From NCBI GenBank assembly GCA_964598205.1, contig CAZRBB010000003.1:17046-81045 (forward strand): a DNA stretch of 64,000 nucleotides, in the 5' to 3' direction. Every line of letters starts with the position of its first letter. Within the stretch, counting starts at the first letter, position 1. A model generated the notes under the pieces. That model was not told the origin of the DNA. It did no database searches and was given only the letters and a program-made list of their open reading frames with translations. This DNA is from an uncultured Candidatus Saccharibacteria bacterium. GTDB lineage: Bacteria > Patescibacteriota > Minisyncoccia > CAIUEV01 > JAHKAQ01. A program made the translations under genes and the position numbers. This document shows positions 1,322 to 39,680 of this stretch, piece after piece.

Positions 1322-2626
1322 TTACATTTCTGGATAAATAGGAAATTCTCTAAAAAGTATCCTGGTATGCTTTTCTATTTTTTTAAGTTCAAAAGGTCGT
1401 TTGTGATTTTCCAAAGCGTTACAAATACTTTCTCCTAGAATTTCCATTTCTTTTTCTTTCATGTTGCGAATAGTGGCGCAGGGCGTTCCTAAACGAATAC
1501 CACTGGGACTAAATGGAGGTCTTGGGTCGTTAGGAACAGTATTTTTGTTAACCGAGATCCCGATTTTTTCTAGGGTTTTTTCGGCATCGGCTCCTGTTAA
1601 GCCCTTGGAAGTAACATCCATTAAAATTAGATGATTATCGGTACCACCGGAAATAAGTTTGAATCCCCTACCAAGAAACACTTTGGCTAGGGCTTGAGAG
1701 TTTTTAACTACCTGCTGGGCCCATTTTTTAAATTGAGGCGTACTGGCTTCTTTTAACGCTACCGCTATTCCGGCAATGGTATGTTCATGCGGACCGCCCT
1801 GCAACCCAGGAAAAATGGCTCGATCAATCAATGTGGGCAGATCTTTTTTAGTTACTTTGTCTGGTTTTTTTAGGGGGTTGGAAGGATTTCCGTTGGTCAT
1901 AATAATTCCCGCTCGCGGACCGCGTAGCGTTTTATGGGTGGTAGAAGTAATTACATCCGCGTGCCCTACTGGTGTTTGATGCACTCCCGCTATTACCAAC
2001 CCAATAATATGAGCAATATCTGCCACAAAAAAAGCATTGTATTTTCTAGCTAGTTCACCAAATTTTTTAAAATCATACTCTCGAGGATAAGCAGTAGCGC
2101 CAGAAAAAATCAATTTAGGACGATGTTTTTTAAAAAGACTTTCTACTTGATCAAAATCAATGTAGCCGTTTTTGTCTACACCATAAAAAACAGAATTGTA
2201 ATACCGACCCGAAAAATTGACTTTAAGTCCATGGGTTAAGTGTCCTCCATGTTGCAACTGCATTCCCATCATGGTGTCGTTGGGTTCTAGGAGAGCAAAA
2301 TAAACCGCTTGATTAGCCGGGCTTCCAGAATAGGGTTGAACATTAACATGGCTTACTTTAAACAACTTCTTGGCCCTGTCTATTGCTAGTTGCTCAATTT
2401 TGTCTGTAAATTCTTGGCCGCCATAATAACGCTTTTTAGGAAATCCTTCGGAATACTTGTTATTAAAAATAGATCCCATTGCTTCTAGAACTGATCGGGA
2501 AGCATAACTTTCCGAAGGAATCATTTCTAGTCCTTTTTGTTGTCTGCTAAGCTCTCCAGAAATAAACTTAAAAACGGCCGGATCTGTTTTTTTGATATTT
2601 TTATAAACCTGATTTCTTTCTCCCAT
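1322..2626 (-). CDS. glyA: Serine hydroxymethyltransferase
   Basis: 434 aa; conserved SHMT motifs (IPSESY, PLP-lysine region TTHKTLRGPR). Confidence 0.95.
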   Translation of the reverse strand: MGERNQVYKNIKKTDPAVFKFISGELSRQQKGLEMIPSESYASRSVLEAMGSIFNNKYSEGFPKKRYYGGQEFTDKIEQLAIDRAKKLFKVSHVNVQPYSGSPANQAVYFALLEPNDTMMGMQLQHGGHLTHGLKVNFSGRYYNSVFYGVDKNGYIDFDQVESLFKKHRPKLIFSGATAYPREYDFKKFGELARKYNAFFVADIAHIIGLVIAGVHQTPVGHADVITSTTHKTLRGPRAGIIMTNGNPSNPLKKPDKVTKKDLPTLIDRAIFPGLQGGPHEHTIAGIAVALKEASTPQFKKWAQQVVKNSQALAKVFLGRGFKLISGGTDNHLILMDVTSKGLTGADAEKTLEKIGISVNKNTVPNDPRPPFSPSGIRLGTPCATIRNMKEKEMEILGESICNALENHKRPFELKKIEKHTRILFREFPIYPEM

Positions 2627-2645
2627 TAGTTTGGTTAAAAATAAT

Positions 2646-3263
2646 TTATTTTTTAACTTCGCTTCGCGCTACGCTCACATTTTTAAATTGACTGTTAAAG
2701 TCTTTATAATAAGCTTTGTAATTTTCTTCTCTGGTCCATTTTTTTAAATATCCTTCAGGGAGAGGCAGGCTAGGAAAAAGATCTATCTTGCTCCATTCTT
2801 TGCCCTTGTATAGAGGGTAGTTATAGTAAAGGGTTTCTTTGGAAATCCCTCTAATAAAAGCTACCTGTGGTATTTTAAAATAAGTTTTAGCTAAATAAGC
2901 TCGGTGCATACCATCGCAAACAATATTAGCCACTTCGCCATTTTCTTCAATGCTTTCTTCTACAATAATCGGTAAAATATCTCGCGGTTCTTTTTGCCCT
3001 TCTACCCAAAACCGGCAAAAACCGTTCAGATTAAAAATATCTACGGCTTTCTTTTTTAGTGCCCAATGAAGTTCAGCAATTTCTTTTAAATTATCTTCCA
3101 CTAAATACCTTTGAGGGCAGTAAAGTCCTTGAGGGCTCAGTTTTTCTAGGGTAACCACTGCTTTGTTGTATGGCTTTACTTTGGTGGCTTCCAGCATGTT
3201 TACCTCCTTCAACCTTCTTAAGAATTCTTTCTCACTGAATTGCTGGACTTTTTGGATTTTCAT
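2646..3263 (-). CDS. Hypothetical protein with ParB/sulfiredoxin-like (DGxHR) motif
   Basis: IVCDGMHRAYLA resembles the DGQHR/ParB-Srx nuclease-fold signature; no other recognisable domain. Confidence 0.4.
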   Translation of the reverse strand: MKIQKVQQFSEKEFLRRLKEVNMLEATKVKPYNKAVVTLEKLSPQGLYCPQRYLVEDNLKEIAELHWALKKKAVDIFNLNGFCRFWVEGQKEPRDILPIIVEESIEENGEVANIVCDGMHRAYLAKTYFKIPQVAFIRGISKETLYYNYPLYKGKEWSKIDLFPSLPLPEGYLKKWTREENYKAYYKDFNSQFKNVSVARSEVKK

Positions 3264-3273
3264 TTTTAGAAAA

Positions 3274-3915
3274 TTAAAGTTTATTTTTTAGGTCATAAAT
3301 TGTTGGTAGAGAAAAATCTGCCGCCACAGAAACACCCCAAGCCAACGCCGTTCGCATCCCGAGCTTTTTAGGAGGAAGAATATCGATTGTCTCCTTGTCT
3401 CCAATAAACAAGTGCTCTTCTGGTTTTCTTTTAGTGAGCTTAAGAAGACCCCGAAAACTATCTCCTGAAAATTTACCACCTAAAAAGTTGTCTCCAAATA
3501 TTTTATACCGAAAAATTTTAGGATCAATGCCTAATGCTTTTATTTTAGCAAAAGCGCTTTTCTTGGCCGATGAAGTCACTAAAAATAAAGTATATTTTTT
3601 GCTCAAATAACCTAGCAAGTGAATAAGTTTTTGGTCTTTTTTGATTGCTAAAGATAGGTCCGCTTCTTGGGAAATCTTTAAAGACAGTTTTTCGGCATTT
3701 TTGATTCCCATTTTTTCTAAAGCTTCGCGTCCGCTTTTTAGAATTTGATAATGTTTTTTGAATTGTTTCTTGGCCACTTCTAACTCTAGTCCCAACTCTT
3801 GAGCAGCTAGGCGATAAACGGTTTCTCTGTAAATTTTAAAAGTGAGCTTTGTTTCTTTGTAAAGCGTTTGGTCTAAATCGAACCCTATTAATTTTATTGT
3901 TTTAGGATCTAGCAT
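3274..3915 (-). CDS. HAD-superfamily hydrolase
   Basis: Motif I FDLDQTLY near the N-terminus and a C-terminal GD motif (FIGDKETID). Confidence 0.7.
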   Translation of the reverse strand: MLDPKTIKLIGFDLDQTLYKETKLTFKIYRETVYRLAAQELGLELEVAKKQFKKHYQILKSGREALEKMGIKNAEKLSLKISQEADLSLAIKKDQKLIHLLGYLSKKYTLFLVTSSAKKSAFAKIKALGIDPKIFRYKIFGDNFLGGKFSGDSFRGLLKLTKRKPEEHLFIGDKETIDILPPKKLGMRTALAWGVSVAADFSLPTIYDLKNKL

Positions 3916-4451
3916 TAAACTTGTTTTTCTTTTTTAGTGGCTACAATCCTTCCTCCTCTCCATTGTCCCCTGGAGGGATTGGACTTGCCTTTTACTTCTT
4001 GGAAAACAATAAAAGCAATCCTAGCTCCTAATTCAATTGTAAATTTGACCGGACCTAAATTAGCCAAACCAAAAGTTAATTTTCCAAAATATTCTGGAGA
4101 AACTTTTCCTGAAAGAAGGGTTACCCCGCTCCTAAAAAGAGTGCTTCTGGGGTAGACGCTAGCAAAAATGTTTTTTCCCATTTTGACTTCTTCAATAGTA
4201 GACACTAAGCAGAAATCACCAGGGAAAAGAGTAAACTCTTTATCTTTTTGTTTGGTGGAGATTGTTTTTTTAATGCTGGCCGTATGTCTTTCTTCTTTCC
4301 CCAAAAAACCTTGGCCAGAAATTAGACTGATTTCGCCGACGCGTAAATCAAACCCAGGACCTTCGGGAAAGTTGAGTTCTCGGGAAGAAAGATTCTTTAC
4401 CAGTCCTTTTTTTTTAACTAAATCTAGAATTTTTGCCGATCCTAGAATCAT
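3915..4451 (-). CDS. dcd: dCTP deaminase/dUTPase-family protein
   Basis: dUTPase/Dcd motif III-like PRSTLFRSGV and beta-rich composition. Adjacent to thyX-like and dCMP deaminase genes. Confidence 0.55.
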   Translation of the reverse strand: MILGSAKILDLVKKKGLVKNLSSRELNFPEGPGFDLRVGEISLISGQGFLGKEERHTASIKKTISTKQKDKEFTLFPGDFCLVSTIEEVKMGKNIFASVYPRSTLFRSGVTLLSGKVSPEYFGKLTFGLANLGPVKFTIELGARIAFIVFQEVKGKSNPSRGQWRGGRIVATKKEKQV

Positions 4452-4457
4452 TGTGTT

Positions 4458-6071
4458 TTATAATAAATTTAGCTTCTTCTGTAATTCTTCTTCCAGGCAA
4501 TCCTTCATGGCAACATGCAGTTCTTGGTTATAACTTGGGATAAATTTTTTAATATAACCACAGGTTTTTTCTTCTGGACAAAAGCCAGAAACAACGCATT
4601 TGGGTTCCATTAAATCAGCCAAGGACGCTAGTCCTTTTTTTCTGAGCGCTTTCTTGATTTCTCTAAGCTCACCCTTGGTTTCTTTGAAAATTTGTTCATC
4701 AGCAGTTACGCAGCTTCTTAGGGAATAATAGCCATCAATCAAATTAAAAAGATTGTATTCCTGAATCATTTTAATTCTTAAGGCTCTTGGAATAATCATT
4801 ACAGCGTCTTTTTCGGGAATACCCAGCCCAACTAGTTTTTGATAGGCATCTAGGGAAGAAAAAGCACAATCCAAGAAAATCTTTCTTTGATCGGAATTTT
4901 TGGCCAAAACCGGTGGAATGGCAAAAACTTGATCCACATTTTCTATTTCTTTTTCTTTTAGATCTTTCTCTTTTCTAAAAGAATCAGCGTAGCGAGAAAA
5001 AACAGCCAGTGCTTGATTAATACAATAATAAATTGATTCTGTGGTAATTGGGGCCGTGCGATGTCTTTTTTTGTCTCGCCATACCCTAAGACTAACATTA
5101 GACAATATTTTTACCGTAATCCCCGTTCCATAGTCGCGAATCAGCTTTCTCCTTAGGAAAAGGACTTTCCGCCAATTGGCTTTTAGTTTCTGGGGATTTT
5201 TAAAAATCTTTTTCTGCTCATTCTTAATAATGGTAGCTTCCTTTATAAAGTTCTTTCCTAGTACGCTGTCTATGCTTATTAAATGGAAATTTTCATTATT
5301 TTTTGCCACCCTAGGCACTGCTCTTTCTAAGTCTCTTGTTAAATTAACAGAAGCTGGGTCTTTAAATAAATTGGGGTATGGATAGGTATTTTTAGGAGAG
5401 GCAAATCTAGTGGAATAAAGAAGATCAACGCCCATTTTTTTAAGTTCTTTTTCTATTTTGGAAAGGAGTAATCCGGCTTCTTCTGGCATCCATTCTTTTT
5501 CTTGCGCATATTCATGGGCAAAGGTGACTAAGGATTCCACTGGCAAAACAATGACTCCTGTTCCATAGGTACCGTATTGGGCGAGTTTTCCCACTTCGTC
5601 TTGTAGTGCCCCCATTTCCAAAAGCTGACTCAATCCTTTAAGATTTTTTTCGGAAGCCTCCTGGTAAATTTTTAATGCTTTTTTATTTTTTAAAATAGAG
5701 GAAGGAAAAACAATATCTTTTTTACTTGCAATGGCGCGTCTGCCAGAATGCATTAAGGCCGAAGAAAAAGTAATCCCTGTAAGCATGGAGCCAACCATTT
5801 TAGAAGCCTCAAAAGAAAAACAAAAAACCGGCAAGGTTCCCATGGAAGCGTGCCCTCTTAGTGAAGATTTTTTTAAGATATTTTTTACTTTTTGTTTTAT
5901 ATCCTGATTTTTTGTTTTGGCTTCCAAAACCAAGTCCGATAAAGATTCACCTCGAAAAGTTAACAGCCCAGAAAAAGCAGCTATTTCTTGAGGAGAAAGA
6001 TTGGCTTTAGGGGAATAATATTGAGGAACGATCCCTAAAATTTTTATTTTAAGATCAGAAGTTTTTTTCAT
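4458..6071 (-). CDS. thyX: FAD-dependent thymidylate synthase ThyX-like, double length (537 aa)
   Basis: ThyX signature RHRX7S present (RHRTAPITTES) in the C-terminal half. The size suggests a tandem ThyX-fold duplication. Flanked by dCMP deaminase and Dcd-like genes. Confidence 0.55.
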   Translation of the reverse strand: MKKTSDLKIKILGIVPQYYSPKANLSPQEIAAFSGLLTFRGESLSDLVLEAKTKNQDIKQKVKNILKKSSLRGHASMGTLPVFCFSFEASKMVGSMLTGITFSSALMHSGRRAIASKKDIVFPSSILKNKKALKIYQEASEKNLKGLSQLLEMGALQDEVGKLAQYGTYGTGVIVLPVESLVTFAHEYAQEKEWMPEEAGLLLSKIEKELKKMGVDLLYSTRFASPKNTYPYPNLFKDPASVNLTRDLERAVPRVAKNNENFHLISIDSVLGKNFIKEATIIKNEQKKIFKNPQKLKANWRKVLFLRRKLIRDYGTGITVKILSNVSLRVWRDKKRHRTAPITTESIYYCINQALAVFSRYADSFRKEKDLKEKEIENVDQVFAIPPVLAKNSDQRKIFLDCAFSSLDAYQKLVGLGIPEKDAVMIIPRALRIKMIQEYNLFNLIDGYYSLRSCVTADEQIFKETKGELREIKKALRKKGLASLADLMEPKCVVSGFCPEEKTCGYIKKFIPSYNQELHVAMKDCLEEELQKKLNLL

Positions 6072-6089
6072 TAAAGAATTTATCTTCCC

Positions 6090-6569
6090 TTACTTTATAA
6101 AAACTATTTTATTGATCTTAACTTGGCTTTTTTTAAAATAATCAAACGCTACCTGATCTCCGTCGTAGTCTCTTAAATAAAAAACTCTTTTTATTTTGGC
6201 ATTAATGATTGTTTTGGCACAAGCCGCACAAGGACGGTAAGTAACAAAGAGATCGGCGCCACTAATGTTTATCCCCAAACTGGCCGCATTGGCAATAGCA
6301 TTCATTTCTGCGTGTGCTCCCCTGCATAATCCTTGATGTTTTTTTTCCACTCCTTTCACAATCTTAGCACAGCCTACTTTGTTGCAATGTTCAATTCCTT
6401 GCGGAGGGCCATTGTAACCCATAGAAAGCAATTGACTTCCCTTGGCAATCACTGCTCCAACCTGATAAAATAAGCAAACAGAGCGTTTTTGAATTACTTC
6501 GCCAATATTAAACCATACTTTTTCCCAGCAAGGTCGATCTTCCCCTTGTTTTATTTTCAAAACGCGCAT
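6090..6569 (-). CDS. comEB: dCMP (deoxycytidylate) deaminase
   Basis: Zinc-binding CDA motifs HAEMNAI and PCAACA. Confidence 0.8.
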   Translation of the reverse strand: MRVLKIKQGEDRPCWEKVWFNIGEVIQKRSVCLFYQVGAVIAKGSQLLSMGYNGPPQGIEHCNKVGCAKIVKGVEKKHQGLCRGAHAEMNAIANAASLGINISGADLFVTYRPCAACAKTIINAKIKRVFYLRDYDGDQVAFDYFKKSQVKINKIVFIK

Positions 6570-6587
6570 ACATGTAAGAAAAACGAG

Positions 6588-8530: not shown

Positions 8531-10504
<1,974 letters not shown>

Positions 10505-20231: not shown

Positions 20232-20313
20232 ACTTTTTGCTTAGCTAATAACTGGTTCCAGTTTAACAATTTTTATTGAAAATTCAAACTTACGCAATTT
20301 TGGAAAACAAAAA

Positions 20314-20446
20314 GCGGGGGCAGTGTTCCCCCGTTTATATTACTTTAGAGGGGACTGCCGCCCGCCGAGCTCGTTATTAGAAGGTCGTTGCCAGTCTTTT
20401 TTTGTAGGGTGACAAACCACAAAAAGACATAATCCAATAACGAGTT
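20314..20446. other. GC-rich structured element in the divergent intergenic region (candidate ncRNA or regulatory RNA)
   Basis: GCGGGGGCAGTGTTCCCCCG hairpin, with long-range complementarity to GGGGACTGCCGCCCGC. A 9-bp stem GAGCTCGTTATT/AATAACGAG encloses ~57 nt. All of this sits in an otherwise AT-rich spacer. Confidence 0.3.
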
Positions 20447-20665
20447 TGGGAACTTTCGTTCCTTTGTTTTTACCAAGCGTTTTTTAAGTTAGCTTCTTTT
20501 TTGTTTTTGTTTTCTTTCTTCTTTCTTCTTTTTTGTTTTTGTTTTATATTTACGCTCAGCAAAAACCTTTTAAGAAATTTTCCCAAAAGACTTTTCCCGA
20601 ACTTGTTCGTCAAATCATTGCCCCTATAGTATAACACATAAATCATAAAATATCAATCCTCTAAA

Positions 20666-21985
20666 ATGACGATGAGTATCCAGAAAATAAGCAGCTTTTT
20701 GTTTTATTGTGTTGTGTTCTTAGGGATGTATCAGTTTCGCCTCTTTTTTAGGCCAGAATTTTCTTTTGTTGGAAATTTTTTTGTTGAATATAACGGTTTT
20801 TCCATTTCTTTGGCCGAGATTGTTTTATTTGTTTTGGCATTATTGAATCATGCTTTCATATTATCAAAGATTAATCTTGTTTTGTCAAATAAATATCCCT
20901 GGCTCTTCCTTGTTCTTTTTTCTTTAAATATAGCCTGTTCAGAGAATCCAATCCTCTCTTTGTATAAATTTTTCCACCTTTCCTTGTGGTTCTGGTTCTT
21001 CTTTTTTGGAATAACTAAAATGAATACCAAAAAGAAGATGAGAATAATTATGATCGTTTTCTTTCTTTCAATATTACTGCAATCCTTTATCGGCATTGTT
21101 CAGTACGCAAATCAGGAATCCATTGGTTTTAAGTACTTGGGAGAAAGTGTTATAAACAAAGACACTCTTAGAGTAGCTAAGATAGACACTTCCAGCGGAA
21201 AAATAATAAGGGCTTATGGAACTCAACCACATCCAAATGTTCTTTCTGGTTTGCTGGGACTAGCCATTATTTTGGGGATAACCCTACTAAATACAGGGGA
21301 TTCCTCTAAATTGTTCCACGTGGAACAATTTAGAGGAATCCTTATTGTAGTTCTTTTTTTGATCACGCTGGCAATATCTTTTTCTTTTTCCAAGATTAAT
21401 TTATTAATTTTGTTTTTACTGTTATTCGGGGGATTTATTTTTTCTAAGAAAAAAATAATTATGTTTTTTTTAATCGCTCTTTTATTGGGATCAATCTTTT
21501 TGGGAATAGAAAAAACAAAAAGCCATTTTAATCCAAGCTCTAAAACATTTAAGGAAAATATCTCTTTAAGAAAAAAATATAGCGACAATGCAATAAAAAT
21601 AATAAAACAAAATCCTTTTATAGGAACAGGATTGGGTGGCTTTTGCTTAGAAGGTTCCTTTTTAAAGGAAAACTATCTAACGCCATGGTATATCCAGCCT
21701 GTTCATAATATTTATCTTTTGATTTTTAGTGAATCGGGAATCTTTATTTTTTTATTTTTTATTTTTTATTTTTTTAAAAAAATAAAATCTTTTTTTATTT
21801 TAAATTCAAATAGTAAATTATTTTTTATTAATTATTTAATTTTGTTTTTATTATTTTCTGGTATATTTGATCACTATTTATACACTTTGAGCCAAGGAAA
21901 TTTCATTTTTTCCTTTGGCTTGATCGCATTTTTTAATTTGAGCAAATTGTTCCACGTGGAACAATTTGCTCAAATTAAAAAATAA
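20666..21985 (+). CDS. O-antigen ligase family (Wzy_C) polytopic membrane protein
   Basis: About 10 TM helices; Wzy_C-like motifs RAYGTQPHPNV and GTGLGGF ... PVHNIYLLIFSESGIFIF. Contains two in-frame long palindromes (listed separately). Confidence 0.7.
   Translation: MTMSIQKISSFLFYCVVFLGMYQFRLFFRPEFSFVGNFFVEYNGFSISLAEIVLFVLALLNHAFILSKINLVLSNKYPWLFLVLFSLNIACSENPILSLYKFFHLSLWFWFFFFGITKMNTKKKMRIIMIVFFLSILLQSFIGIVQYANQESIGFKYLGESVINKDTLRVAKIDTSSGKIIRAYGTQPHPNVLSGLLGLAIILGITLLNTGDSSKLFHVEQFRGILIVVLFLITLAISFSFSKINLLILFLLLFGGFIFSKKKIIMFFLIALLLGSIFLGIEKTKSHFNPSSKTFKENISLRKKYSDNAIKIIKQNPFIGTGLGGFCLEGSFLKENYLTPWYIQPVHNIYLLIFSESGIFIFLFFIFYFFKKIKSFFILNSNSKLFFINYLILFLLFSGIFDHYLYTLSQGNFIFSFGLIAFFNLSKLFHVEQFAQIKK
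21298..21341. repeat. 44-bp perfect palindrome (core AAATTGTTCCACGTGGAACAATTT) inside the Wzy-like CDS
   Basis: GGATTCCTCTAAATTGTTCCAC|GTGGAACAATTTAGAGGAATCC checked base by base; encodes SKLFHVEQF. Confidence 0.9.
21928..21983. repeat. 56-bp perfect palindrome with the same 24-bp core, at the 3' end of the Wzy-like CDS
   Basis: ATTTTTTAATTTGAGCAAATTGTTCCAC|GTGGAACAATTTGCTCAAATTAAAAAAT checked base by base; it overlaps the stop codon and could also act as a terminator hairpin. Confidence 0.9.
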
Positions 21986-21991
21986 CCAGAT

Positions 21992-22357
21992 ATGAATCAA
22001 CGGAAAATACGAGGGAACAGAGGAGAAGACATTGCTTGTTATTATTTGACAAGAAAAGGATTTAATGTTGTTGCCAGAAACTACTCGGTTTCCTTTGGAG
22101 AAATCGACTTAATTGCAAAAAAGGGAAATCTTTTGGTTTTTGTAGAAGTAAAGTGCCGAAAACAGCAAATAAACAAGGACTCTGAAAATCCCGAATCTTC
22201 TATAAATGCTAACAAAATAAGGAAGATAAAGAAAACAGCTTCTTTTTTTATTAAGCAACAAGGATTGGATCCTGATGGAAATTATCGTTTTGATGCTATC
22301 TCTATTATAATAGGAAACAAAGTAATTTCTTTAAAACACATTCTTTATGCTTTTTAG
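21992..22357 (+). CDS. yraN: UPF0102/YraN-family endonuclease-like protein
   Basis: Typical YraN N-terminus (GNRGEDIACYYLTRKGFNVVARNYSVSFGEIDLIA ... VFVEVKCR). Confidence 0.85.
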   Translation: MNQRKIRGNRGEDIACYYLTRKGFNVVARNYSVSFGEIDLIAKKGNLLVFVEVKCRKQQINKDSENPESSINANKIRKIKKTASFFIKQQGLDPDGNYRFDAISIIIGNKVISLKHILYAF

Positions 22358-30841: not shown

Positions 30842-31918
30842 ATGAACTATAACGAAAAAGAAAATTTAAAAAGAGGGCTGATTGAAGAAGCAAGGGGTGT
30901 TTGGGAAACTCAACAAACCGGAGAGGCTTTGACGGTTTTGAAAAACTTAGAAGAGGATCTTTGGAGGGAAGTTTTTACAGAAAAAGAACTGGCTGTTTTA
31001 AGGATAAGGATGAACTGGGTTGCTTTTCCTGTAATTCCAGAAAAAGAACAAATGAAGCTTATTGCTGAGCACTTACTTTTGCCTCTTTACGATGGAGGTT
31101 TTGATCTTAAGAAACCTTTTGAAATAAAGCAGTTGCTTACACCGATTAGTATTTGGCCAGACGAAACCGTTCCCAAGCTAATTGAAACATTTTTACAAAA
31201 CCAAGAAAAAATAGGCGATCAACCAAGGAAAACAAAGACCGGAAAAGAAGTTTTGCCTACTATAGAATTTTGGCTGAAGGACTACTTAGATGAATATGGC
31301 ATGGACAAACAAGAAAGCGTAGCGATTATGCACTATCTTAGTCAATCAGAAAATGTTAACACCTTGAACAATAAAGAAAAAGAAGTCCTAAAGAGATTGC
31401 TTCTTTTGTTTGAATCAATAAAAGTTTTTTCTATTGATCAAATTTTTAGGGAGGTGCAAAAAATTGCCATCAAAGAAAATCAGGCCAATGCTGGTGCTCG
31501 TCCTTCTTTGCCACAACCCACAAAACAACCGACTACCCCTTTTGTTTTTAGCCAAAGAAGTGCTCCTTCTTTAGAAAAAACAGAGACAAGTGGTGACTTA
31601 ATAGCAAAGCGCACAATAAAACAGGCACTGGAATCAAGGCCTCAAATAGCTGCTCAGGAAATAACTAGTCAACCGGTTCTTCTTTTGGGGAAACAAGATC
31701 CAGTAAGGCCTACTGTTCAAAACTGGTTATTAGACTACCGAAGTCGTTTTGGAATTTCTGAGCACACCGCAGAAGACCAAAAATCTTTTATTGAAAAGTC
31801 TCCAAATACTAAAAACCTATCGGAACAAGAGAGGCAAAGAGTCTTTTTAGTGATCGACTCTTACGATAACGATTCCCTTCTTAATGTTTCTGAGACCAAT
31901 AAAAGACTTTTATTTTAA
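30842..31918 (+). CDS. Hypothetical soluble protein in the T4SS-like cluster
   Basis: 358-aa ORF with no recognisable motif; assigned by operon position only. Confidence 0.4.
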   Translation: MNYNEKENLKRGLIEEARGVWETQQTGEALTVLKNLEEDLWREVFTEKELAVLRIRMNWVAFPVIPEKEQMKLIAEHLLLPLYDGGFDLKKPFEIKQLLTPISIWPDETVPKLIETFLQNQEKIGDQPRKTKTGKEVLPTIEFWLKDYLDEYGMDKQESVAIMHYLSQSENVNTLNNKEKEVLKRLLLLFESIKVFSIDQIFREVQKIAIKENQANAGARPSLPQPTKQPTTPFVFSQRSAPSLEKTETSGDLIAKRTIKQALESRPQIAAQEITSQPVLLLGKQDPVRPTVQNWLLDYRSRFGISEHTAEDQKSFIEKSPNTKNLSEQERQRVFLVIDSYDNDSLLNVSETNKRLLF

Positions 31919-32316
31919 TGAGATTCAAGGTTCCCCAAAATATTGACATTGAAGACAAGATTGTTGGTCCCTTAACGGGAAAACAGTTCCTTTGGCTTTT
32001 AGGAGGAGCAGTTATTATGCTTCTTATTTGGAGGTTGGTAGACTTTTCTTTGTTTATTGCTTTTTCTGTTGTAATAATGGGAACAATGTGTGCTTTTGCT
32101 TTTATTCGACCCTACCAACAAAACATGATTGTTTTTTTGGGGAACATCTTTCTTTATTCCAGCAAGGGAAAGCAGTTTCTTTGGAAAAAAGAAGTCGGTC
32201 CAGTAGAAAAACGACTTTCTAGGAAACCAGAGGAAGAAATTATTATTGTTAAAAAGTCTTTTTCTTACAAAGAAGCAGAGAAGCTAGCAAAAACATTGGA
32301 CAGCCAAGAAAAATAA
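31918..32316 (+). CDS. PrgI/VirB3-like small membrane protein
   Basis: N-terminal FKVPQNIDIEDKIVGPLTGKQFLWL followed by two TM helices, the hallmark of the Gram-positive PrgI family. Located immediately upstream of VirB4. Confidence 0.5.
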   Translation: MRFKVPQNIDIEDKIVGPLTGKQFLWLLGGAVIMLLIWRLVDFSLFIAFSVVIMGTMCAFAFIRPYQQNMIVFLGNIFLYSSKGKQFLWKKEVGPVEKRLSRKPEEEIIIVKKSFSYKEAEKLAKTLDSQEK

Positions 32317-32321
32317 AAAAA

Positions 32322-33026
32322 ATGCAAGAAAGTCTAAATGCAAAAAAATTAATAAGGAACAACATTCAAAGTGCTAGCACCCAGCAGTTTTTGGATATCA
32401 ACGAAATAAAAGATGGGGTAGTGATTTTAAAAAATGGGGCACTGAGATCTGTTTTAATGGTTTCTTCTATTAATTTTGATTTAAAATCAATAGAAGAGCA
32501 GGATGCGATTATTTACCAATATCAAAGCTTTCTTAATTCTCTTGACTTCCCAATCCAAATTCTTATCAGCTCCAGAAGAATAAATTTAAAGAAATACATT
32601 GAAAGTTTGCAAGAAATTTCCAGAAAACAAACAAACGAACTGCTCCACATGCAAACAGAAGATTATATTCAATATGTTTCTTCTATGGTTACGGTTACCA
32701 ATATTGTGAATAAAACTTTTTACATTGTTGTTCCTTTTTCGCCAGTAGAAAACCAAAAAAGCGGAGTGGCAGATAAGTTCTTTGGTTTTTTTACTCCTAA
32801 AAAAACAGAGGACATAGAGAAGCAAAAAGGGTTTGTGGTTTATAAAAATCAGCTTTGGCAAAGAGTAGAACAGGTTCAGTATGGATTGAGCGGAGCAGGA
32901 ATTAGAATGGTTGCACTAGGAACTCAGGAACTAGTAGAGCTTTACTATTCAATGTATAATCCGGGATCTATTGAAAGACTGGAGCTAGCTCCAATAGAGG
33001 AGATGGCTATTAATACTTCTTTTTAA
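32322..33026 (+). CDS. Hypothetical protein, possibly a VirB4/TrbE N-terminal-domain-like fragment
   Basis: FLDINEIKDGVVILKNGALRSVLMVSSINFDLKSIEEQDAI resembles the VirB4 N-terminal region. Same reading frame as the downstream VirB4, separated by one TAA and 6 nt. Confidence 0.3.
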   Translation: MQESLNAKKLIRNNIQSASTQQFLDINEIKDGVVILKNGALRSVLMVSSINFDLKSIEEQDAIIYQYQSFLNSLDFPIQILISSRRINLKKYIESLQEISRKQTNELLHMQTEDYIQYVSSMVTVTNIVNKTFYIVVPFSPVENQKSGVADKFFGFFTPKKTEDIEKQKGFVVYKNQLWQRVEQVQYGLSGAGIRMVALGTQELVELYYSMYNPGSIERLELAPIEEMAINTSF

Positions 33027-33032
33027 CTTATT

Positions 33033-34838
33033 ATGTCTTTCTTTTTTTCAAAAAATAAAAACAACAAAACGCCGAATAGTGGCGAACGAGAATATCAAAA
33101 CGAGGTTATAACGATTAGAGACTTAATTGCACCGGCTTCTTTTTATGTAACGCCTTCGTCTCTGCGAGTTGGGGAGAAGCTGGTCAAAACAATTTTTATT
33201 ATTACTTATCCTCGCTATTTACAAACCGGCTGGTTTTCTTCGGTTATCAATCTGGATAAAATGCTAGATGTTTCCATGTTTATTCATCCCATTGATACAA
33301 ATGTTATTTTAAAATCTTTGCGTAAAACTGCAACACAAGTTCAATCTAGAATGACTATGGAGTCTCAGTCTGGAAAAATCAGAGATCCAATCCTAGAAAC
33401 ATCCCTTAACGACATTGAAGAACTAAGAGATCGTTTACAACAGGGGACGGAAAGATTTTTTCGTTTTGGTGTTTACATTACTATTTATGGAAACTCTCCC
33501 AAAGAGCTAGAAGATTTAAGCGCTTCGATTGAGTCTTCTATGGAGGCTCGTTTAATTTATTTAAAGCCCGCCGTTTTTAGAATGGAGCAAGGATTCGCTT
33601 CCACTCTGCCCATTGCTAACGACGAACTAGACGCTTCTACAAACCTCAACACTTCCCCGCTTTCTACTTCTTTCCCTTTTACCTCTTCCAATTTAAGCTC
33701 TAACGATGGAATTCTTTACGGGATAAATCGACACAACAACAGTTTGATTCTTTTTGATCGATTTAAAATGGAGAACGCGAACATGGTAGTTTTTGCTAAA
33801 TCGGGCGCAGGTAAGTCTTATTTTACAAAACTAGAAATTGTTCGCTCTTTAATGATGGGAGCGCAGGTAATTGTGATTGATCCAGAAAATGAATATAAAC
33901 ACCTTTGCGAGGCCGTGGGAGGGTCTTTTATTAAGATCTCCCTAAACTCCCCCAATCATATAAATCCTTTTGACCTGCCAGTACTTCAAGAAGATGAGAG
34001 CCCTGAAGATGTTTTGCGAGGTAATATTGCTAATCTTTTAGGATTAACAAGAATTATTTTGGGAAACATTACCCCTGAAGAAGATTCTATTTTAGATAAA
34101 GCAATTAAAGAAGCTTACGCGGCCAAAGATATTACCCCTGACTCTCCTGAGTTCCAAGCAACATCACAAGACCCCCCAACAATGTCTCTCCTTTATGAGG
34201 TCCTAAGAAACATGAGTGGCGGAGAAGACTTGGCCACTAGGCTTGAAAAATATACAGAAGGAACCTTTGCCGGATTCTTAAACAAGCCAACAAATGTTCG
34301 AATTGATACCCAGCTGGTTGTTTTTAATATCCGAGACATGGAAGAAATCTTGCGACCAGTAGCAATGTATTTGGTTTTGCAGTTTATTTGGAACAGAATT
34401 CGCTCTGATATGCGAAAAAGACTTTTAATTGTTGACGAGGCCTGGATTATGATGGCCCATGAAGATGCTGGCGATTTTATGTTCCAAATAGCCAAACGGT
34501 GTCGAAAATACTACACTGGATTAACAACCATTACCCAAGATGTTACCGATTTTATAAATTCCCGCTACGGAAAACCCATTATTACAAACTCTTCTCTGCA
34601 GCTCCTACTAAAGCAATCTCCGGCTTCGGTTGATATTATTTCTGAAACCTTTTATCTTACAGAACAAGAGAAGTTTCTCCTTTTAGAAAGCTCAGTAGGA
34701 GAAGGGATTTTTTTTGCGGGACTAAAACATGCTGCAATCAAGGTGGTCGCTTCTTACACGGAAGATCAAATAATCACATCTAACCCGGCACAATTAATAG
34801 AAATTGCTAAAGCCAAAAAGGAGCTAACACTAAGCTAA
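33033..34838 (+). CDS. virB4: VirB4/TrbE/CagE-family conjugal-transfer-type ATPase
   Basis: Walker A AKSGAGKSY; Walker B LLIVDEAW; typical VirB4 N-region (YPRYLQTGW). Confidence 0.85.
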   Translation: MSFFFSKNKNNKTPNSGEREYQNEVITIRDLIAPASFYVTPSSLRVGEKLVKTIFIITYPRYLQTGWFSSVINLDKMLDVSMFIHPIDTNVILKSLRKTATQVQSRMTMESQSGKIRDPILETSLNDIEELRDRLQQGTERFFRFGVYITIYGNSPKELEDLSASIESSMEARLIYLKPAVFRMEQGFASTLPIANDELDASTNLNTSPLSTSFPFTSSNLSSNDGILYGINRHNNSLILFDRFKMENANMVVFAKSGAGKSYFTKLEIVRSLMMGAQVIVIDPENEYKHLCEAVGGSFIKISLNSPNHINPFDLPVLQEDESPEDVLRGNIANLLGLTRIILGNITPEEDSILDKAIKEAYAAKDITPDSPEFQATSQDPPTMSLLYEVLRNMSGGEDLATRLEKYTEGTFAGFLNKPTNVRIDTQLVVFNIRDMEEILRPVAMYLVLQFIWNRIRSDMRKRLLIVDEAWIMMAHEDAGDFMFQIAKRCRKYYTGLTTITQDVTDFINSRYGKPIITNSSLQLLLKQSPASVDIISETFYLTEQEKFLLLESSVGEGIFFAGLKHAAIKVVASYTEDQIITSNPAQLIEIAKAKKELTLS

Positions 34839-34842
34839 AAAA

Positions 34843-35253
34843 ATGGAAAACATTAGTAAAAAAAAGATTTTTTTCTTTCTCCTGCTGCTCTTTCTTCTTG
34901 TTGTGCCAGTTATTGCTTCTTATGCCAAGTGGGATTTAGAGATTGATATTCCCGTGGATGGCGCTACCGATACTATCCCTGGATATGTTAACAAGATATA
35001 CAAGTTTGTTGTTACGGTTATTGGAATTTTGGGCGCCGGAATGTTTATGATTGGAGGGTTTCAGTATCTTGTTTCTGCCGGCAATACTTCTTCTGTGGGG
35101 CACGCCAAAGAAACTATTTTTGCTGCTCTTGCTGGACTAATCATTGTTTTTGCCTCTTTTCTTCTTTTGCGAATAATCAATAAAGAATTAACAGACCTAT
35201 CTAATCCAACAACACTAAAGGAGTCTTCTTATTTTTTGGCTCTGTTGCCCTAG
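34843..35253 (+). CDS. Pilin-like (VirB2/TrbC-like) small protein: signal peptide plus two TM helices
   Basis: 136 aa. N-terminal signal/TM, a central Gly-rich hydrophobic helix GILGAGMFMIGG, and a second TM; sits directly after VirB4. Confidence 0.45.
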   Translation: MENISKKKIFFFLLLLFLLVVPVIASYAKWDLEIDIPVDGATDTIPGYVNKIYKFVVTVIGILGAGMFMIGGFQYLVSAGNTSSVGHAKETIFAALAGLIIVFASFLLLRIINKELTDLSNPTTLKESSYFLALLP

Positions 35254-36667
35254 GGCGCTCCCTGTTCTCCTTTTCTACAAGACTAGAAAAAGCCAATAGA
35301 AGAAAAAATAAAGGCAATATAACTGGCGAATAAAGAGGCATTTCAAAAAAAGAGTGGATTAAAAACCAAACAAAAGAGCCCAAAAGACAAGCACTCAAAA
35401 GTGCTTCTTTTTTGTTGGAAAGAAACAATCCTCTTCTGAGTCCTTGAATAGCTACAAACAAGATGGCCATAAATAAACCGATTCCAATAATCCCTGTTTC
35501 TGCTAAGAGCTCTAAGTAAAGGTTGTGCGCATAAATTGGGTCTCTATATTCTGACAAAGAGTTGACCTCGTAAGAGAACGCTCCAAGACCAACTCCTAAA
35601 AGAGGATGTTCTTTGGAAATGGAAATGGCCTTGGCCCAAACAGCCAGCCGGCCCTGGTTAGAACCTTCTGACAAGTCGAACGAGCTTTTTAGACGACCCC
35701 CTATTGGACCAAGAAACAAAAGACCCGCAAGAATGGCGAAAAGAAAAAGATTTTTTGCTTTTTTTTGAATAGCTAAAATAACCACTGCAAGAAAAATTGC
35801 TCCTAAAAAACCAAGGTATCCTCCACGAGAAAAAGTTAAGGCTTCCGTAAAAACGCTTAAAATGACCGCAAATAAAAAAAACGCTTTCCTTTTTTTATTT
35901 TTTGAGTCAAAGAAAGAAAAAAGCTGAGCAGGCAGCGAAAAAGAAAGAAAAAAGCTGAGCATATGAGGATCAGGAAAAGGAAGAAACGCTCTTAGGAAGT
36001 CTTTTCCGGAAAGATCGACTAGCCAGCTAGGATTGTTTTTAACTGCTAAAGAAGCGGTGGTTCCCCAAAAAAAAGGACCAAAACGATCGGTGCACCAAGA
36101 GATAAGCGTTTTTGAGTCCACTAAAAATTGCAGAAGAAAAAAAGATAAAGCGAAAAAACAAACAACAGCTCCAGAAACTCCAAGAGCGGTAACTATTTTT
36201 TTTCTTAGAAGTAATCCTTTTTCCATTATTAGTCCATAAGCAACGAAAAAAATAGGGGCAATGGTTAGAAGAACCAATAATTTTCTTACTGTTCTTTCTG
36301 TAACGGGCGAGTAGAAAAGAGAAAGACAAGACCAGAAACAAAAAAGAATAATCAGAAAAGCAGTTTTATTTTTCGCCCAAACGGGTCGCCGGCCCCAACA
36401 GAAGCCCATGGCAAACACCCAAAATAAAGAGCATATAATTAAGCGACTAGAGGCAAGGTCTATTTCTGGCCCTAGGTTAAGAGCTGGTAGAAATGGCAAG
36501 AGGAAAATAAGAGAAACTAAGGAAAAAGAAAGGCTTAGAGAAAAAAAGAACAACGGTAAAGAAAAGATAATTATTTTTTCTTTGTAGCCAAACAGAAAGC
36601 CTAGCAAGACCGAAAAAGACAACCAGGAAGTTGCTTTAAAAAACTTACTTCTTTTTCCAATAAACAT
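35201..36667 (-). CDS. O-antigen ligase family (Wzy_C) polytopic membrane protein
   Basis: Motifs FSRGGYLGF and AHNLYLELLAETGIIG; more than 10 TM helices. Confidence 0.7.
   Translation of the reverse strand: MFIGKRSKFFKATSWLSFSVLLGFLFGYKEKIIIFSLPLFFFSLSLSFSLVSLIFLLPFLPALNLGPEIDLASSRLIICSLFWVFAMGFCWGRRPVWAKNKTAFLIILFCFWSCLSLFYSPVTERTVRKLLVLLTIAPIFFVAYGLIMEKGLLLRKKIVTALGVSGAVVCFFALSFFLLQFLVDSKTLISWCTDRFGPFFWGTTASLAVKNNPSWLVDLSGKDFLRAFLPFPDPHMLSFFLSFSLPAQLFSFFDSKNKKRKAFFLFAVILSVFTEALTFSRGGYLGFLGAIFLAVVILAIQKKAKNLFLFAILAGLLFLGPIGGRLKSSFDLSEGSNQGRLAVWAKAISISKEHPLLGVGLGAFSYEVNSLSEYRDPIYAHNLYLELLAETGIIGIGLFMAILFVAIQGLRRGLFLSNKKEALLSACLLGSFVWFLIHSFFEMPLYSPVILPLFFLLLAFSSLVEKENRERPRATEPKNKKTPLVLLD
35909..35961. 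repeat. Tandem direct repeat, 2x 22 nt (AAAGAAAGAAAAAAGCTGAGCA) with a 9-nt spacer, inside the Wzy-like CDS
   Basis: Exact copies at 35909-35930 and 35940-35961; encodes a duplicated LSFF/LSFSL peptide. Confidence 0.85.
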
Positions 36668-37475
36668 TTTTAAAATAAACAGGAAGCCGTAGAAAACAAA
36701 AAATCAAGCAAAACAATGCGTGGAAATGCTTTCTTAAAAACAAATCTTGCGACTGGTAATAGTAGCGCTTTCTCTTGGTAAAGGGAATTCTGCTTTTGCT
36801 TTCTAGGTGTTTAACAGAAACATCTTTTTCTATTAATAGCTGAACATTTTCTTCCTTTGCCCGAAAAGAAAAATCCTTGTCTTCAAAATAAAGAAAAAAG
36901 CCCGGATCAAAACCTTTTAGTTGCAAAAAAACTTCCTTTCTTATAAGAAAACAGGCGCCACTGAGCCAGTCAACTTCTCTTTCGGAATGCCCTGGCCGAC
37001 TAGAGCTGTTTATTGAGCTATTAAATTGTTTTTTTAAGAAAATCCGCTCTAAAAAACCAACTTGTCCAGAGGCATGTTTTTGTTTTGTGCCAGAAGAAGT
37101 GCTTAACAGGGGGGCGACAATGGTGGGGTATTTCTTTTGGCTTAGTCTTTTAAAAAGAATTTTGGCTTGACCAAAAGACAAGAAGCAGTCTGGATTAAGA
37201 AATAAGAGATTTTCTTGGATTGCCTTCTTAGCCGCTAGGTTACAGGCCCTTCCAAAGCCGATATTTTTTGAGCTTTTGATAATCTTAATGTTTTTGCACA
37301 GCTTTTCCCCTAAAATCGACGGCAAAGACTGTCTTTTGTTTCTTAGAAACTCTCCGTTGTCCACCACTAAAATTTCTGTCTGGCTATTTTCTTGCTTTTC
37401 TTCAATAAAAAACAAAATAGCCCTTTTTAGATTATGCGCTGAGTTATAATTAACAAAAATAACCGAGAGCTTCAT
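36645..37475 (-). CDS. Family 2 glycosyltransferase
   Basis: N-terminal SVIFVNYN and GT-A fold motifs; sits in the polysaccharide cluster. Confidence 0.8.
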   Translation of the reverse strand: MKLSVIFVNYNSAHNLKRAILFFIEEKQENSQTEILVVDNGEFLRNKRQSLPSILGEKLCKNIKIIKSSKNIGFGRACNLAAKKAIQENLLFLNPDCFLSFGQAKILFKRLSQKKYPTIVAPLLSTSSGTKQKHASGQVGFLERIFLKKQFNSSINSSSRPGHSEREVDWLSGACFLIRKEVFLQLKGFDPGFFLYFEDKDFSFRAKEENVQLLIEKDVSVKHLESKSRIPFTKRKRYYYQSQDLFLRKHFHALFCLIFCFLRLPVYFKNVYWKKK

Positions 37476-37478
37476 TTT

Positions 37479-38912
37479 TTAAGAAACATTATTCCCTTTT
37501 AGCATTTCCCTTATGTCTTTTATGGAAAAAATCCCAAAAAATCCAGCAAGAAGAAGATATGTTCCTCCGCCCGCCAAAATACGAAAAGGAAGAAAGAGGC
37601 TGTTTAGTGAAACAAGAACAAGGACCATCCCTGTTCCAGAAAGCAAAAGACGGAAAAAAATATTAGAAAAAAATATTTTCTTAAATTTTGAAAAAACAAA
37701 AAAGGCAGAAAGAGAAAAGACAACAACCTCTGTTACTGAAGAAATGACTGCTGCGGCTAAAAAGGAATATTTGGGGATGAGGATTAAGTTAAGGCTTATG
37801 TTTAAAAAGGCAGCTAATAGGAAAATTTTTAAAAGCCTTTTTTGTAGATTGGCTGCGATTAGAACCGAATTAAAATACTGTCCTAAAAATATTCCAAAAA
37901 TAGAAGGCGTTAGTAGTCTTAGTGCCCAAACAGACTTTTCAAAGCCAGGCCCGTTGATAATTTTTACAATTTCCGGTGCTAAAGCAAAGACCCCAAAAGA
38001 GATCCCTGTAGCAGCTAGAGCAATCGCCTTTAACGACTCTAGGCGAATCTTGTTGAATTTTTCATGGTCGTTAAAAACATAGCGAGAAAATAACGGAGCT
38101 ACAAGCCCCATAAACATTGCAGGAAAGTAGGAAAGGTTTTCTATTATTTTGTAAGCGGCACCATAAAGTCCAACATCTTGAGAGCCCTTAACCACAGAAA
38201 GAATAATAGTGTCTATTCGAAAATAAAGAAAGGTAACAATGGCTGAAATTCCCAAGGGAAGCGCTTCCTTGATTAATCTTTTAGCCGTTCCTCCGCTCCC
38301 CAAAAAGCTAATCTTGATTTCTTTTTTAGTTATAAAAAACACTCCTAAAAAAGTTATTGTCCAGGAAAAAACAAGGCCCCAAAGAATCCATAAAAGACCC
38401 TTGTCAAAACTAAAACAAGCCCAAACCCACAACAAGTTGCAGATTCTTCCTAAAAGCTCTAAAAAAGACACCTTGTATGCTAAAAGCCTTTTTTGAAAAA
38501 TAGCAGAAAGCGTTTGGTATCCAGAAGAAAAAAACAAACCAAGAGAAACCAGGACAATGCCCTTTTTTATGTCGAGAGAGTAGGGAAGGAGAAGGGCAAA
38601 GAGTAGCGCCAGGATCATTAGGATGGCAGAAGACCCCATTCTAATTAGAAGGGCGGCGCTGATAATTTTTTCTTCTCCCTTAGAGTCGTTTTCTTTTCTG
38701 GAAATTTCTCTTAAAACAACTTGGTTTAGCCCTAAATCACCCAAGGAAGAGAAGAAAAAGAAAAAAGCCAAAATTGTGGCGTACTTTCCCAAACCTTCTG
38801 CGCCTAACTGTCTTGCTGTTAGCCCCCAGGCAACCAGGGCAACAATGGTCCAGGTGATTTTTGCCGTGGCAGAAAGAAGGGTGTTTATGGCAATTTTAGC
38901 AGAAAGATTCAT
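37479..38912 (-). CDS. wzx: Polysaccharide biosynthesis protein / O-unit flippase (Wzx, MOP/PST family)
   Basis: 477 aa, about 12-14 TM helices with PST-family architecture. Confidence 0.8.
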   Translation of the reverse strand: MNLSAKIAINTLLSATAKITWTIVALVAWGLTARQLGAEGLGKYATILAFFFFFSSLGDLGLNQVVLREISRKENDSKGEEKIISAALLIRMGSSAILMILALLFALLLPYSLDIKKGIVLVSLGLFFSSGYQTLSAIFQKRLLAYKVSFLELLGRICNLLWVWACFSFDKGLLWILWGLVFSWTITFLGVFFITKKEIKISFLGSGGTAKRLIKEALPLGISAIVTFLYFRIDTIILSVVKGSQDVGLYGAAYKIIENLSYFPAMFMGLVAPLFSRYVFNDHEKFNKIRLESLKAIALAATGISFGVFALAPEIVKIINGPGFEKSVWALRLLTPSIFGIFLGQYFNSVLIAANLQKRLLKIFLLAAFLNISLNLILIPKYSFLAAAVISSVTEVVVFSLSAFFVFSKFKKIFFSNIFFRLLLSGTGMVLVLVSLNSLFLPFRILAGGGTYLLLAGFFGIFSIKDIREMLKGNNVS

Positions 38913-38921
38913 CGACTCTCT

Positions 38922-39680
38922 TTATTTTTTTCCTCCTACTGTTTTCTTAATAAAATATTGCTGCAAGATTGAAACCGCCGTGCTTATGCTCCAGTAAAAA
39001 GGAAGGCCTGCGGGGAAGCCAAGTGCAAAAACAAAGGCCATTATCGGCATCATGTAAAGCATTTGCCCGCTAAGAATGTCTTGAAATTCTGGTTCCCTTG
39101 AGCCTTCTTCGGATTTTTCTTTTTTCTTTGGAGCTGGTGGCATGATTTGCTTAGAGTAGACAAACTGTAACGCCCCACTTAGTAGGGCAAGGAAGAAGTT
39201 TTTTTGAGCCAAATCAACAATCCCTAGAAAGGTTGTGTTCATTTCGGTTACTCCTTGAAAGAAAGAATGCCCATAAAGCAGTCCCTGAGAGACCGCTAAA
39301 TGTCCATCAACAAGAGAGAGTGCGGCGTTACCAGGAATTAGAACCCTGTACAAAGCAAAAAGAACGGGAAGTTGAATCAGGGCAATTAAACAACCCAGCG
39401 CAGGGTTTATGTTCTCTTTTTTATAAAGCGCTAAAACCTCTTTTCCTTGCTGTTCTTTGTTGTTTTTGAATTTTTCTTTTATTTCTTTTATTTGCGGTTG
39501 GAGGTTTTTTATTTGATGTTGAGAAGTGGCCTGTTTTTTAGTTAGGGGATAAAGAATTGTTTTAATAAGAATTGTTAAAAGAATAATGGCGATTCCAAAA
39601 TCTCCAAAAAACTTATAAAAAACAATCAGGGCGTTAAATAGGGGGCGGTAAAGCAGTTCGTCAAATAAAAATTTGAACAT
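38922..39680 (-). CDS. yidC: Membrane protein insertase YidC/Oxa1 (short form)
   Basis: Conserved ILLTILIKTILYPLT ... LYKKENINP region; downstream of rnpA. Confidence 0.85.
   Translation of the reverse strand: MFKFLFDELLYRPLFNALIVFYKFFGDFGIAIILLTILIKTILYPLTKKQATSQHQIKNLQPQIKEIKEKFKNNKEQQGKEVLALYKKENINPALGCLIALIQLPVLFALYRVLIPGNAALSLVDGHLAVSQGLLYGHSFFQGVTEMNTTFLGIVDLAQKNFFLALLSGALQFVYSKQIMPPAPKKKEKSEEGSREPEFQDILSGQMLYMMPIMAFVFALGFPAGLPFYWSISTAVSILQQYFIKKTVGGKK

Follow-up and report, generated by a model that had tools for sequence, protein, structure and literature searches.

Why should a membrane-protein gene carry two long, perfect DNA palindromes within its reading frame? The question is posed by a 64-kb stretch of contig CAZRBB010000003.1 from an uncultured member of the Patescibacteria, or Candidate Phyla Radiation (CPR); we refer to this whole stretch as the window. 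One palindrome spans 44 bp (21298-21341) and the other 56 bp (21928-21983); they have a 24-bp core in common and lie within a plus-strand open reading frame (ORF; 20666..21985) that encodes a 439-residue membrane protein of the Wzy_C (O-antigen ligase/polymerase) family (Pfam Wzy_C, E 1.3e-14, residues 227-366). This gene is the Wzy_C paralogue adjoining DksA. An original prediction, made from the sequence alone, had described the pair and offered a range of explanations for it. Sequence checks bore out the description: both palindromes are perfect, their cores lie 636 bp apart and are read in frame, both times as SKLFHVEQF, and the second palindrome overlaps the stop codon. Among the explanations offered, a DNA-binding site reused as coding sequence fits best, since the core contains what appears to be a perfect copy of parS (TGTTCCACGTGGAACA), the nearly universal centromere-like site of bacterial chromosomes, to which the chromosome-partition protein ParB (Spo0J) binds. 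Taken as a whole, the best explanation is that the palindromes are the chromosome's origin-proximal parS sites, with arms added by template switching, and we regard it as likely.

Palindrome centres and the parS consensus

The 24-mer core (AAATTGTTCCACGTGGAACAATTT) is present in exactly 2 copies in the window (21308-21331 and 21944-21967), where shuffled sequences are expected to hold 0. At the centre of each copy lies a 16-bp perfect palindrome, TGTTCCACGTGGAACA (parS-1, 21312..21327; parS-2, 21948..21963; no strand is assigned to either), with 0 mismatches to TGTTNCACGTGNAACA. When up to 2 mismatches to TGTTNCACGTGNAACA were allowed, just these two sites were recovered from the window (0.12 expected), and the two 10-kb extensions into the source contig contained none. 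The 16-mer is, letter for letter, the parS consensus of Pseudomonas putida; the parS strings of P. aeruginosa and Myxococcus xanthus are near-identical to it, and that of Bacillus subtilis is TGTTNCACGTGAAACA (PMC7022226 Table 1).

A scan of one genome per species recovered the central 20-mer (ATTGTTCCACGTGGAACAAT) from at least 120 stretches of genomic DNA spread over many phyla, including Acidobacteriota, Bacteroidota, Verrucomicrobiota, Clostridia, Nitrospirota, Bdellovibrionota and Patescibacteria; by our own estimate, chance would supply ~0.5 occurrences over the 596 Gb. Among the 120 matches listed, 23 had an ORF with a ParB box (GERRxRA) within 8 kb of the 20-mer, and 26 had a ParA-type Walker motif within the same distance. 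Given one parAB operon per genome, this degree of co-occurrence would be far above chance. Taken together, these comparisons indicate that the centres of the two palindromes are very probably parS, that is, putative ParB-binding sites.

The palindromes extend well past the 16-mer. Round parS-1, the 44-bp palindrome (21298..21341) consists of the 24-bp extended CPR consensus described below (21308-21331) and 10-bp arms (GGATTCCTCT/AGAGGAATCC), while the 56-bp palindrome round parS-2 (21928..21983) consists of the same 24 bp (21944-21967) and 16-bp arms (ATTTTTTAATTTGAGC/GCTCAAATTAAAAAAT). Outside the 24-mer, the arms of the two palindromes are not alike. As single-stranded DNA, the two would fold into hairpins of -20.1 kcal/mol (z -10.8) and -25.7 kcal/mol (z -11.2), respectively. 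An assembly artefact was ruled out by the agreement of three independent assemblies: the compared stretches (11.8 and 20.8 kb) are identical, palindromes included, in two further metagenome assemblies, and a third further assembly differs by 1 single-nucleotide polymorphism (SNP) in 20.8 kb, outside both palindromes. A known RNA family was likewise rejected, as an Rfam search of the palindromes returned nothing above threshold, merely generic miRNA-like hairpin matches. The third-longest perfect palindrome of the 64 kb is a 24-bp A/T-only run (TTTTATTTTTTTAAAAAAATAAAA, 21764-21787), also within the Wzy gene, and the sole SNP among three assemblies over 20.8 kb (C/A at 21789, serine to tyrosine) adjoins it.

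The extent of the shared core can be read against other CPR sites. Among 55 perfect CPR 16-mers, a set that was not picked by the 20-mer query, flank position 9, counted from the centre, is A or T, and positions 10 and 11 are A in 84% and 75% of sites, respectively, giving an extended CPR consensus of AA[A/T]-parS-[A/T]TT. The shared 24-mer appears to be essentially this extended consensus and, because it equals that consensus, it gives no sign of a recent duplication. The sites are also palindromic past the consensus more often than expected. Palindromes of at least 28 bp surround 10 of the 55 CPR sites (0.63 expected), and those of at least 30 bp surround 12 of 142 cross-phylum sites (0.75 expected), the expectation in each case coming from shuffles that re-pair left and right flanks among sites. 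The flanks of these excess palindromes are not the same from one site to another. Lengths matching those in the window are rare and were reached at 2 of the 142 cross-phylum sites, both in Bacteroidota: a 56-bp palindrome in a metagenome-assembled genome (MAG) of the Rikenellaceae (L042, 4009-4064) and a 66-bp palindrome in a Saprospiraceae MAG (L073, 4970-5035). Both contain parS and sit exactly between convergent gene ends, and the Rikenellaceae example has A5/T5 runs in its arms, resembling a bidirectional terminator.

Coding context, relatives and the origin region

How does a membrane protein accommodate these sites? The 44-bp palindrome is translated as GDSSKLFHVEQFRGIL (residues 211-226), a short loop that hydropathy places between two hydrophobic segments, and the 56-bp palindrome as the C-terminal tail AFFNLSKLFHVEQFAQIKK, beyond the last such segment. 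The original prediction had raised the question of whether SKLFHVEQF interrupts conserved transmembrane helices; alignment and hydropathy instead assign one site to a variable loop and the other to the C-terminal tail. It had also set the first palindrome directly after a Wzy_C motif, but site 1 in fact lies just ahead of the Pfam Wzy_C match and follows a conserved RAYGTxPHPN segment. The loop at site 1 is hypervariable: several homologues have FHVEQ or CSTWN there, and the parS-free ones have unrelated sequence. The tail at site 2 is common to the orthologue in one syntenic relative (KMFHVEHF in L123). The last base of the 56-bp palindrome is the first base of the TAA stop codon, and the ATG of yraN (21992..22357, plus strand; UPF0102, a predicted PD-(D/E)xK endonuclease; Pfam UPF0102, 8.9e-25) follows directly downstream, 8 nt further on.

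In both copies, FHVEQ is spelled TTC CAC GTG GAA CAA, a choice of rare codons with a joint probability of ~0.004 per site when codon usage in eleven long window genes is taken as the reference. Because of this spelling, the sequence appears to be kept as DNA, with the protein merely tolerant of it. parS is tolerated within the Wzy_C ORF because it occupies a hypervariable loop and a C-terminal tail. Database gene calls differ over this ORF. The NCBI call for the MAG is 437 residues long, and the JGI call (L121 10001-10849) uses an internal start, yielding 282 residues, and covers the N-terminal half with two small ORFs on the minus strand. Since homologues align to the full ORF from its N-terminus, the shorter call is probably an error.

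The window shares its gene order (GatCA, LysM-CHAP, ComM, LspA and DksA on one side; Wzy_C, YraN, CCA-adding enzyme and RsmA on the other) with two CPR relatives, L131 (NCBI JBDRHQ010000023.1) and L123 (ENA ERZ21869533 contig_5, 1.2 Mb). The orthologue comparison called for by the original prediction revealed that the same Wzy gene carries parS in both. The 4 perfect 16-mers of L131 all lie in or just after this gene, as do the 8 of L123, and the flanks of the two loci contain no parS elsewhere. The proteins of these relatives are only about 30-35% identical. In L123 parS again falls in the C-terminal tail of the orthologue, and in both relatives it occurs at the Wzy-YraN junction, yraN being likewise the neighbour of the parS-bearing gene. 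The original prediction had also envisaged that the core might prove absent elsewhere and be shared by orthologues as ordinary coding sequence. Orthologues do carry the sequence, but the core is abundant elsewhere, as a protein-binding site found across phyla.

Further CPR loci recovered by the DNA scan have 5-11 sites in a span of 1-1.5 kb, and at several loci (L017, L039, L074 and L083) these fall inside a Wzy-like ORF. The Wzy query also recovered protein homologues with as many as 14 pentapeptides that parS encodes, all three frames of the site being represented (FHVEQ, VPRGT and CSTWN). This set is biased by word-index retrieval and serves as illustration only; the association between parS and Wzy rests on the DNA-selected and synteny-selected loci. 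We rejected the idea that any Wzy_C gene hosts parS, as a second, dnaA-proximal paralogue (35204-36703, minus strand; E 9e-24), which stands with a GT2 glycosyltransferase and a Polysacc_synt flippase (35204-38921) beside yidC, is parS-free in the window, L132 and L136. Other CPR genomes have parS in different genes, for example in the tail of RecF or of a WecB/TagA-like protein. A separate case is that of Moranbacteria GW2011_GWF2_35_54 (L069, 1004-2180), where eleven parS-like sites, many of them asymmetric TGTTTCACGTGGAACA/TGTTCCACGTGAAACA variants, occupy 1.2 kb with no spanning ORF of at least 100 residues; it appears to be a non-coding array of parS, whereas the arrays of other CPR genomes are embedded in ORFs.

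The position of the Wzy gene on the chromosome is also informative. The cumulative G-C curve is lowest at 20,983, a short way into the gene and ~330 bp upstream of site 1, which puts both parS sites 0.3-1 kb from the minimum. Gene direction changes from minus to plus in the divergent intergenic region between DksA (minus) and Wzy (plus), a gap (20232..20665) with a long T-rich tract. This position of the minimum makes a replication origin near the gap probable. The genes gyrB (8534-10489) and yidC (38925-39680), both on the minus strand, lie in the window, as do two markers of an origin region, dnaA (40268-41656, plus strand; Pfam Bac_DnaA, 1.6e-66) and dnaN (41827-42942, plus strand; DNA_pol3_beta domains). 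The dnaA gene is 18.3 kb from parS-2, and a 1.2-Mb relative has the same layout; no parS was found round dnaA (~20 kb off) in the one relative examined for this, L132 (1.2 Mb). The best DnaA match in the protein collection has 62% identity, and the named relatives belong to the 'Patescibacteria group', Moranbacteria and Parcubacteria.

Several other features of this region deserve mention. The DksA/Wzy gap contains a G+C-rich hairpin (AAGCGGGGGCAGTGTTCCCCCGTTT, 20312-20336) that is terminator-like on both strands, together with a polypyrimidine tract of ~70 nt (about 20480-20550). Rfam gave no match above threshold for the gap (20232-20665), which may encode an unannotated small RNA or belong to oriC. 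The interval that runs from the parS sites to dnaA includes a cluster resembling a conjugation system or type IV secretion system (T4SS; 30842-35250), with PrgI (31903-32313) and a TraG/VirB4-like ATPase (33027-34835). The corresponding cluster of a relative (L132 1-4905) encodes a T4SS pilin and a TraC-like protein. Conservation of the cluster in the 1.2-Mb relative makes it a probable resident system of CPR bacteria and not an island. Past the window end, the source contig encodes a type III restriction-modification (R-M) methylase, a helix-turn-helix protein and a ResIII-family helicase/restriction subunit (L128 16811-20561). The order of this locus differs in a second sample (L129), which suggests strain-level rearrangement.

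Of the proteins expected to act with parS, ScpA and ScpB are encoded on the source contig, ~18 kb outside the window on its start side; no SMC was seen there. The minus-strand ORF at 2646-3260 encodes a ParB-CE domain protein (PF24392, E 1.6e-49), which sits in a nucleotide-metabolism cluster and is not a partition ParB. That contiguous cluster (1322-6587, minus strand) comprises a dCMP deaminase (6093-6587), a dCTP deaminase/dUTPase (3918-4457), a HAD phosphatase (3277-3933), SHMT (1322-2626) and a ThyX (4461-6089) that is unusually long at 543 residues, with its Thy1 domain confined to residues 330-480. The presence of a ParB/Srx-fold protein in this setting hints at a pyrimidine or DNA-modification pathway, not partition.

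Proposed template switching and alternative explanations

The sequence identity of the centres with parS, their origin-proximal position, their conservation at the DNA level and their placement at permissive positions of the protein are directly supported by the findings above. As set out in PMC7022226, PMC7053999 and PMC8367383, a ParB dimer binds the 16-mer, closes as a CTP-dependent clamp and spreads, thereby organizing origin segregation and SMC loading. By analogy with this established ParABS biology, a ParB dimer on each of the two 16-mers would form such a clamp and spread onto nearby DNA, and the resulting partition complex would position the origin and load SMC-ScpAB. The arms would be a by-product. 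A perfect core, kept intact by selection, may nucleate hairpins in single-stranded DNA at replication; polymerase could then copy one flank as the complement of the other by intramolecular template switching, perfecting and lengthening the palindrome wherever the protein permits change. Both the perfecting of quasipalindromes and the growth of inverted repeats have been traced to template switching (PMC7202029, PMC8794818 and PMC13100816). Such a process agrees with arms that are specific to each site, with the excess across phyla and with the confinement of long arms to permissive DNA (loop, tail and intergenic sequence). We nevertheless propose only tentatively, at a little short of an even chance, that the site-specific arms of 10 and 16 bp per side arose in this way.

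A number of observations weigh against our explanation. Neither a canonical ParB nor a canonical ParA gene turned up in the window, across the 104 kb covered of the 187-kb source contig or at the CPR loci examined; the ParB search used a motif regular expression followed by a hidden Markov model built from 24 ParB sequences, applied to the window, both contig extensions and all CPR loci. Nor was ParB found in the dnaA neighbourhoods of two complete-genome relatives. The window has 2 parS sites, compared to 4-8 in its syntenic relatives. The E. coli-type DnaA box (TTATCCACA) is not enriched in the window and so does not pinpoint oriC. ParB needs just 16 bp, such that binding leaves the 44- and 56-bp arms unexplained. 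Finally, strain variants are identical at the palindromes and the Wzy of the next relative is only about a third identical over a partial alignment, leaving no intermediate from which the direction of arm copying could be read.

The alternative that retains parS at the core differs over the arms, which would have been selected in their own right, either as an RNA hairpin (a terminator, attenuator, processing site or stabiliser) at the Wzy/yraN junction and within the Wzy mRNA, or as a DNA hairpin or cruciform that aids ParB or SMC loading at the origin. Excess palindromy past the consensus at parS sites across phyla would be expected on this account, and both window palindromes fold very stably. 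The location of palindrome 2, at a stop codon and immediately ahead of the yraN start, points the same way, as does the exact placement of the two long examples from other phyla between convergent gene ends, with A5/T5 runs in that of the Rikenellaceae. For the terminator invoked in the original prediction, a terminator scan gave a mixed result. It flagged palindrome 1 weakly, but that palindrome is mid-gene, where termination would truncate the catalytic domain, and it left unflagged palindrome 2, at the gene end, which has its T-run 5' and its A-run 3'. Moreover, the arm sequences are conserved neither between the two sites nor among relatives, and the literature searched contained no report of parS with a cruciform or of hairpin-dependent parS function. 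Cruciform extrusion would, in addition, melt the duplex that ParB recognizes. We therefore consider selection for the arms unlikely.

The remaining alternatives assign the cores a different identity altogether. Two identical 24-bp cores, in frame within homologue-variable regions of one gene, together with many copies in all three reading frames of homologous CPR genes, might be taken for a palindromic mobile element that inserted twice into the Wzy gene, be it a miniature inverted-repeat transposable element (MITE), a repetitive extragenic palindrome (REP) or something like the Rickettsia palindromic elements (RPE). The original prediction had favoured such an element among its options, but it does not hold up: the core is a cross-phylum parS rather than a lineage-specific repeat, 104 kb of the same contig holds no copies beyond these two, the sequence outside the 24-mer is unlike between them, neither target-site duplications nor a nearby transposase were found, and just 3 of 2.9 million viral contigs contain the 24-mer. 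Such an insertion is, in our judgment, very improbable. We give even less credence to the proposal that the cores are recombination sites which invert or delete the 636-bp segment, a swappable C-terminal cassette, to vary a surface-polysaccharide enzyme. The proposal draws on the identical palindromic cores that a surface-glycan gene has at two points, spaced by exactly 212 codons. Yet in a 15-sequence alignment the segment between them corresponds to the conserved catalytic core of Wzy_C, runs colinear with every homologue and contains invariant residues that include R302, G320, G322 and Q344-P345-x-H347-N348. No long ORF crosses it on the reverse strand (the longest listed has 121 residues and is in another frame), there is no recombinase among the annotated neighbours, three independent assemblies show one arrangement, and the 4-11 such sites of relatives are irregularly spaced. 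The CACGTG at the centre of the core, the lack of a ParB gene seen locally and the R-M methylase past the window end could instead point to some other CACGTG-recognizing factor, such as a palindrome-binding regulator or an R-M system. However, conservation spans all 16 bp and not just 6, the 16-mer is identical to parS, and the sites cluster at the origin instead of being dispersed and co-occur with parAB in other phyla, making a factor other than ParB highly unlikely.

Returning to origin-proximal parS sites with arms grown by template switching, a broader version of this explanation can be put forward for a clade of the Patescibacteria. Its whole centromere would lie in or just after one DksA-adjacent Wzy_C gene by the origin, with no parAB nearby, and the cores would either seed palindromes by template switching or form hairpins that themselves serve in loading ParB or SMC or in insulating transcription at the centromere. 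We regard this extension as doubtful, if worth stating.

Significance and comparison with known systems

The kind of element is already known: these are two chromosomal parS sites at a CPR origin, and no new system is involved. Three details appear to be unreported in the literature searched: the long perfect arms, the conserved position of the parS cluster in one Wzy_C paralogue and the lack of parAB nearby. For annotation, the palindromes and the switch in GC skew mark the centromere and origin neighbourhood of an uncultured CPR genome, and the palindromes should not be taken for mobile DNA or phase-variation sites. The FHVEQ, VPRGT and CSTWN peptides, being driven by DNA, could mislead protein-family analyses. 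With no parAB within 100 kb, the cognate ParB, if present, would be encoded elsewhere in these reduced genomes. Palindromy that exceeds what ParB needs, and does so across phyla, fits growth seeded by a binding site that selection keeps intact; this too appears unreported in the literature searched. If seeded growth is correct, parS would offer a natural, cross-phylum model of palindrome birth driven by a protein-binding site.

The window sites resemble the chromosomal parS sites of ParABS systems (B. subtilis, tGTTNCACGTGAAACa; P. putida and P. aeruginosa, TGTTCCACGTGGAACA) in having the same 16 bp, in being origin-proximal and few in number, and in lying in coding DNA. Indeed, the first parS site described in B. 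subtilis lies within spo0J. They differ in being nested in 44- and 56-bp perfect palindromes, in having no parAB adjacent or within 104 kb in the contig, and in their host, an uncultured patescibacterium: the literature searched held no relevant report of parS in CPR bacteria or of ParB in Patescibacteria, Saccharibacteria or Parcubacteria. Dense origin-proximal parS is known from M. xanthus (22 sites) and Corynebacterium glutamicum (10 sites; PMC7022226 Table 1), and the CPR relatives, with 4-11, likewise have multiple near-identical sites by the origin. In contrast to those clusters, the CPR sites are packed into about 1-1.5 kb and run largely through one Wzy_C-family ORF in three frames, of which the window keeps two sites.

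With the quasipalindromes attributed to template switching (PMC7202029, PMC8794818 and PMC13100816), the window palindromes share perfect inverted repeats, locus-specific arms and an excess of palindromy that grows outward from a core. Here, unlike there, growth would start from a protein-binding site that selection keeps perfect, and a templated event would have to be deduced from its product. A last comparison is with the RPE, selfish repeats of ~100-150 bp that lie in frame in many genes of one lineage. As these elements are generally known, they too are palindromic DNA translated in frame at permissive positions of conserved proteins; the element described here differs in being a putative binding site of 16-24 bp that is restricted to the origin region and shared across phyla.

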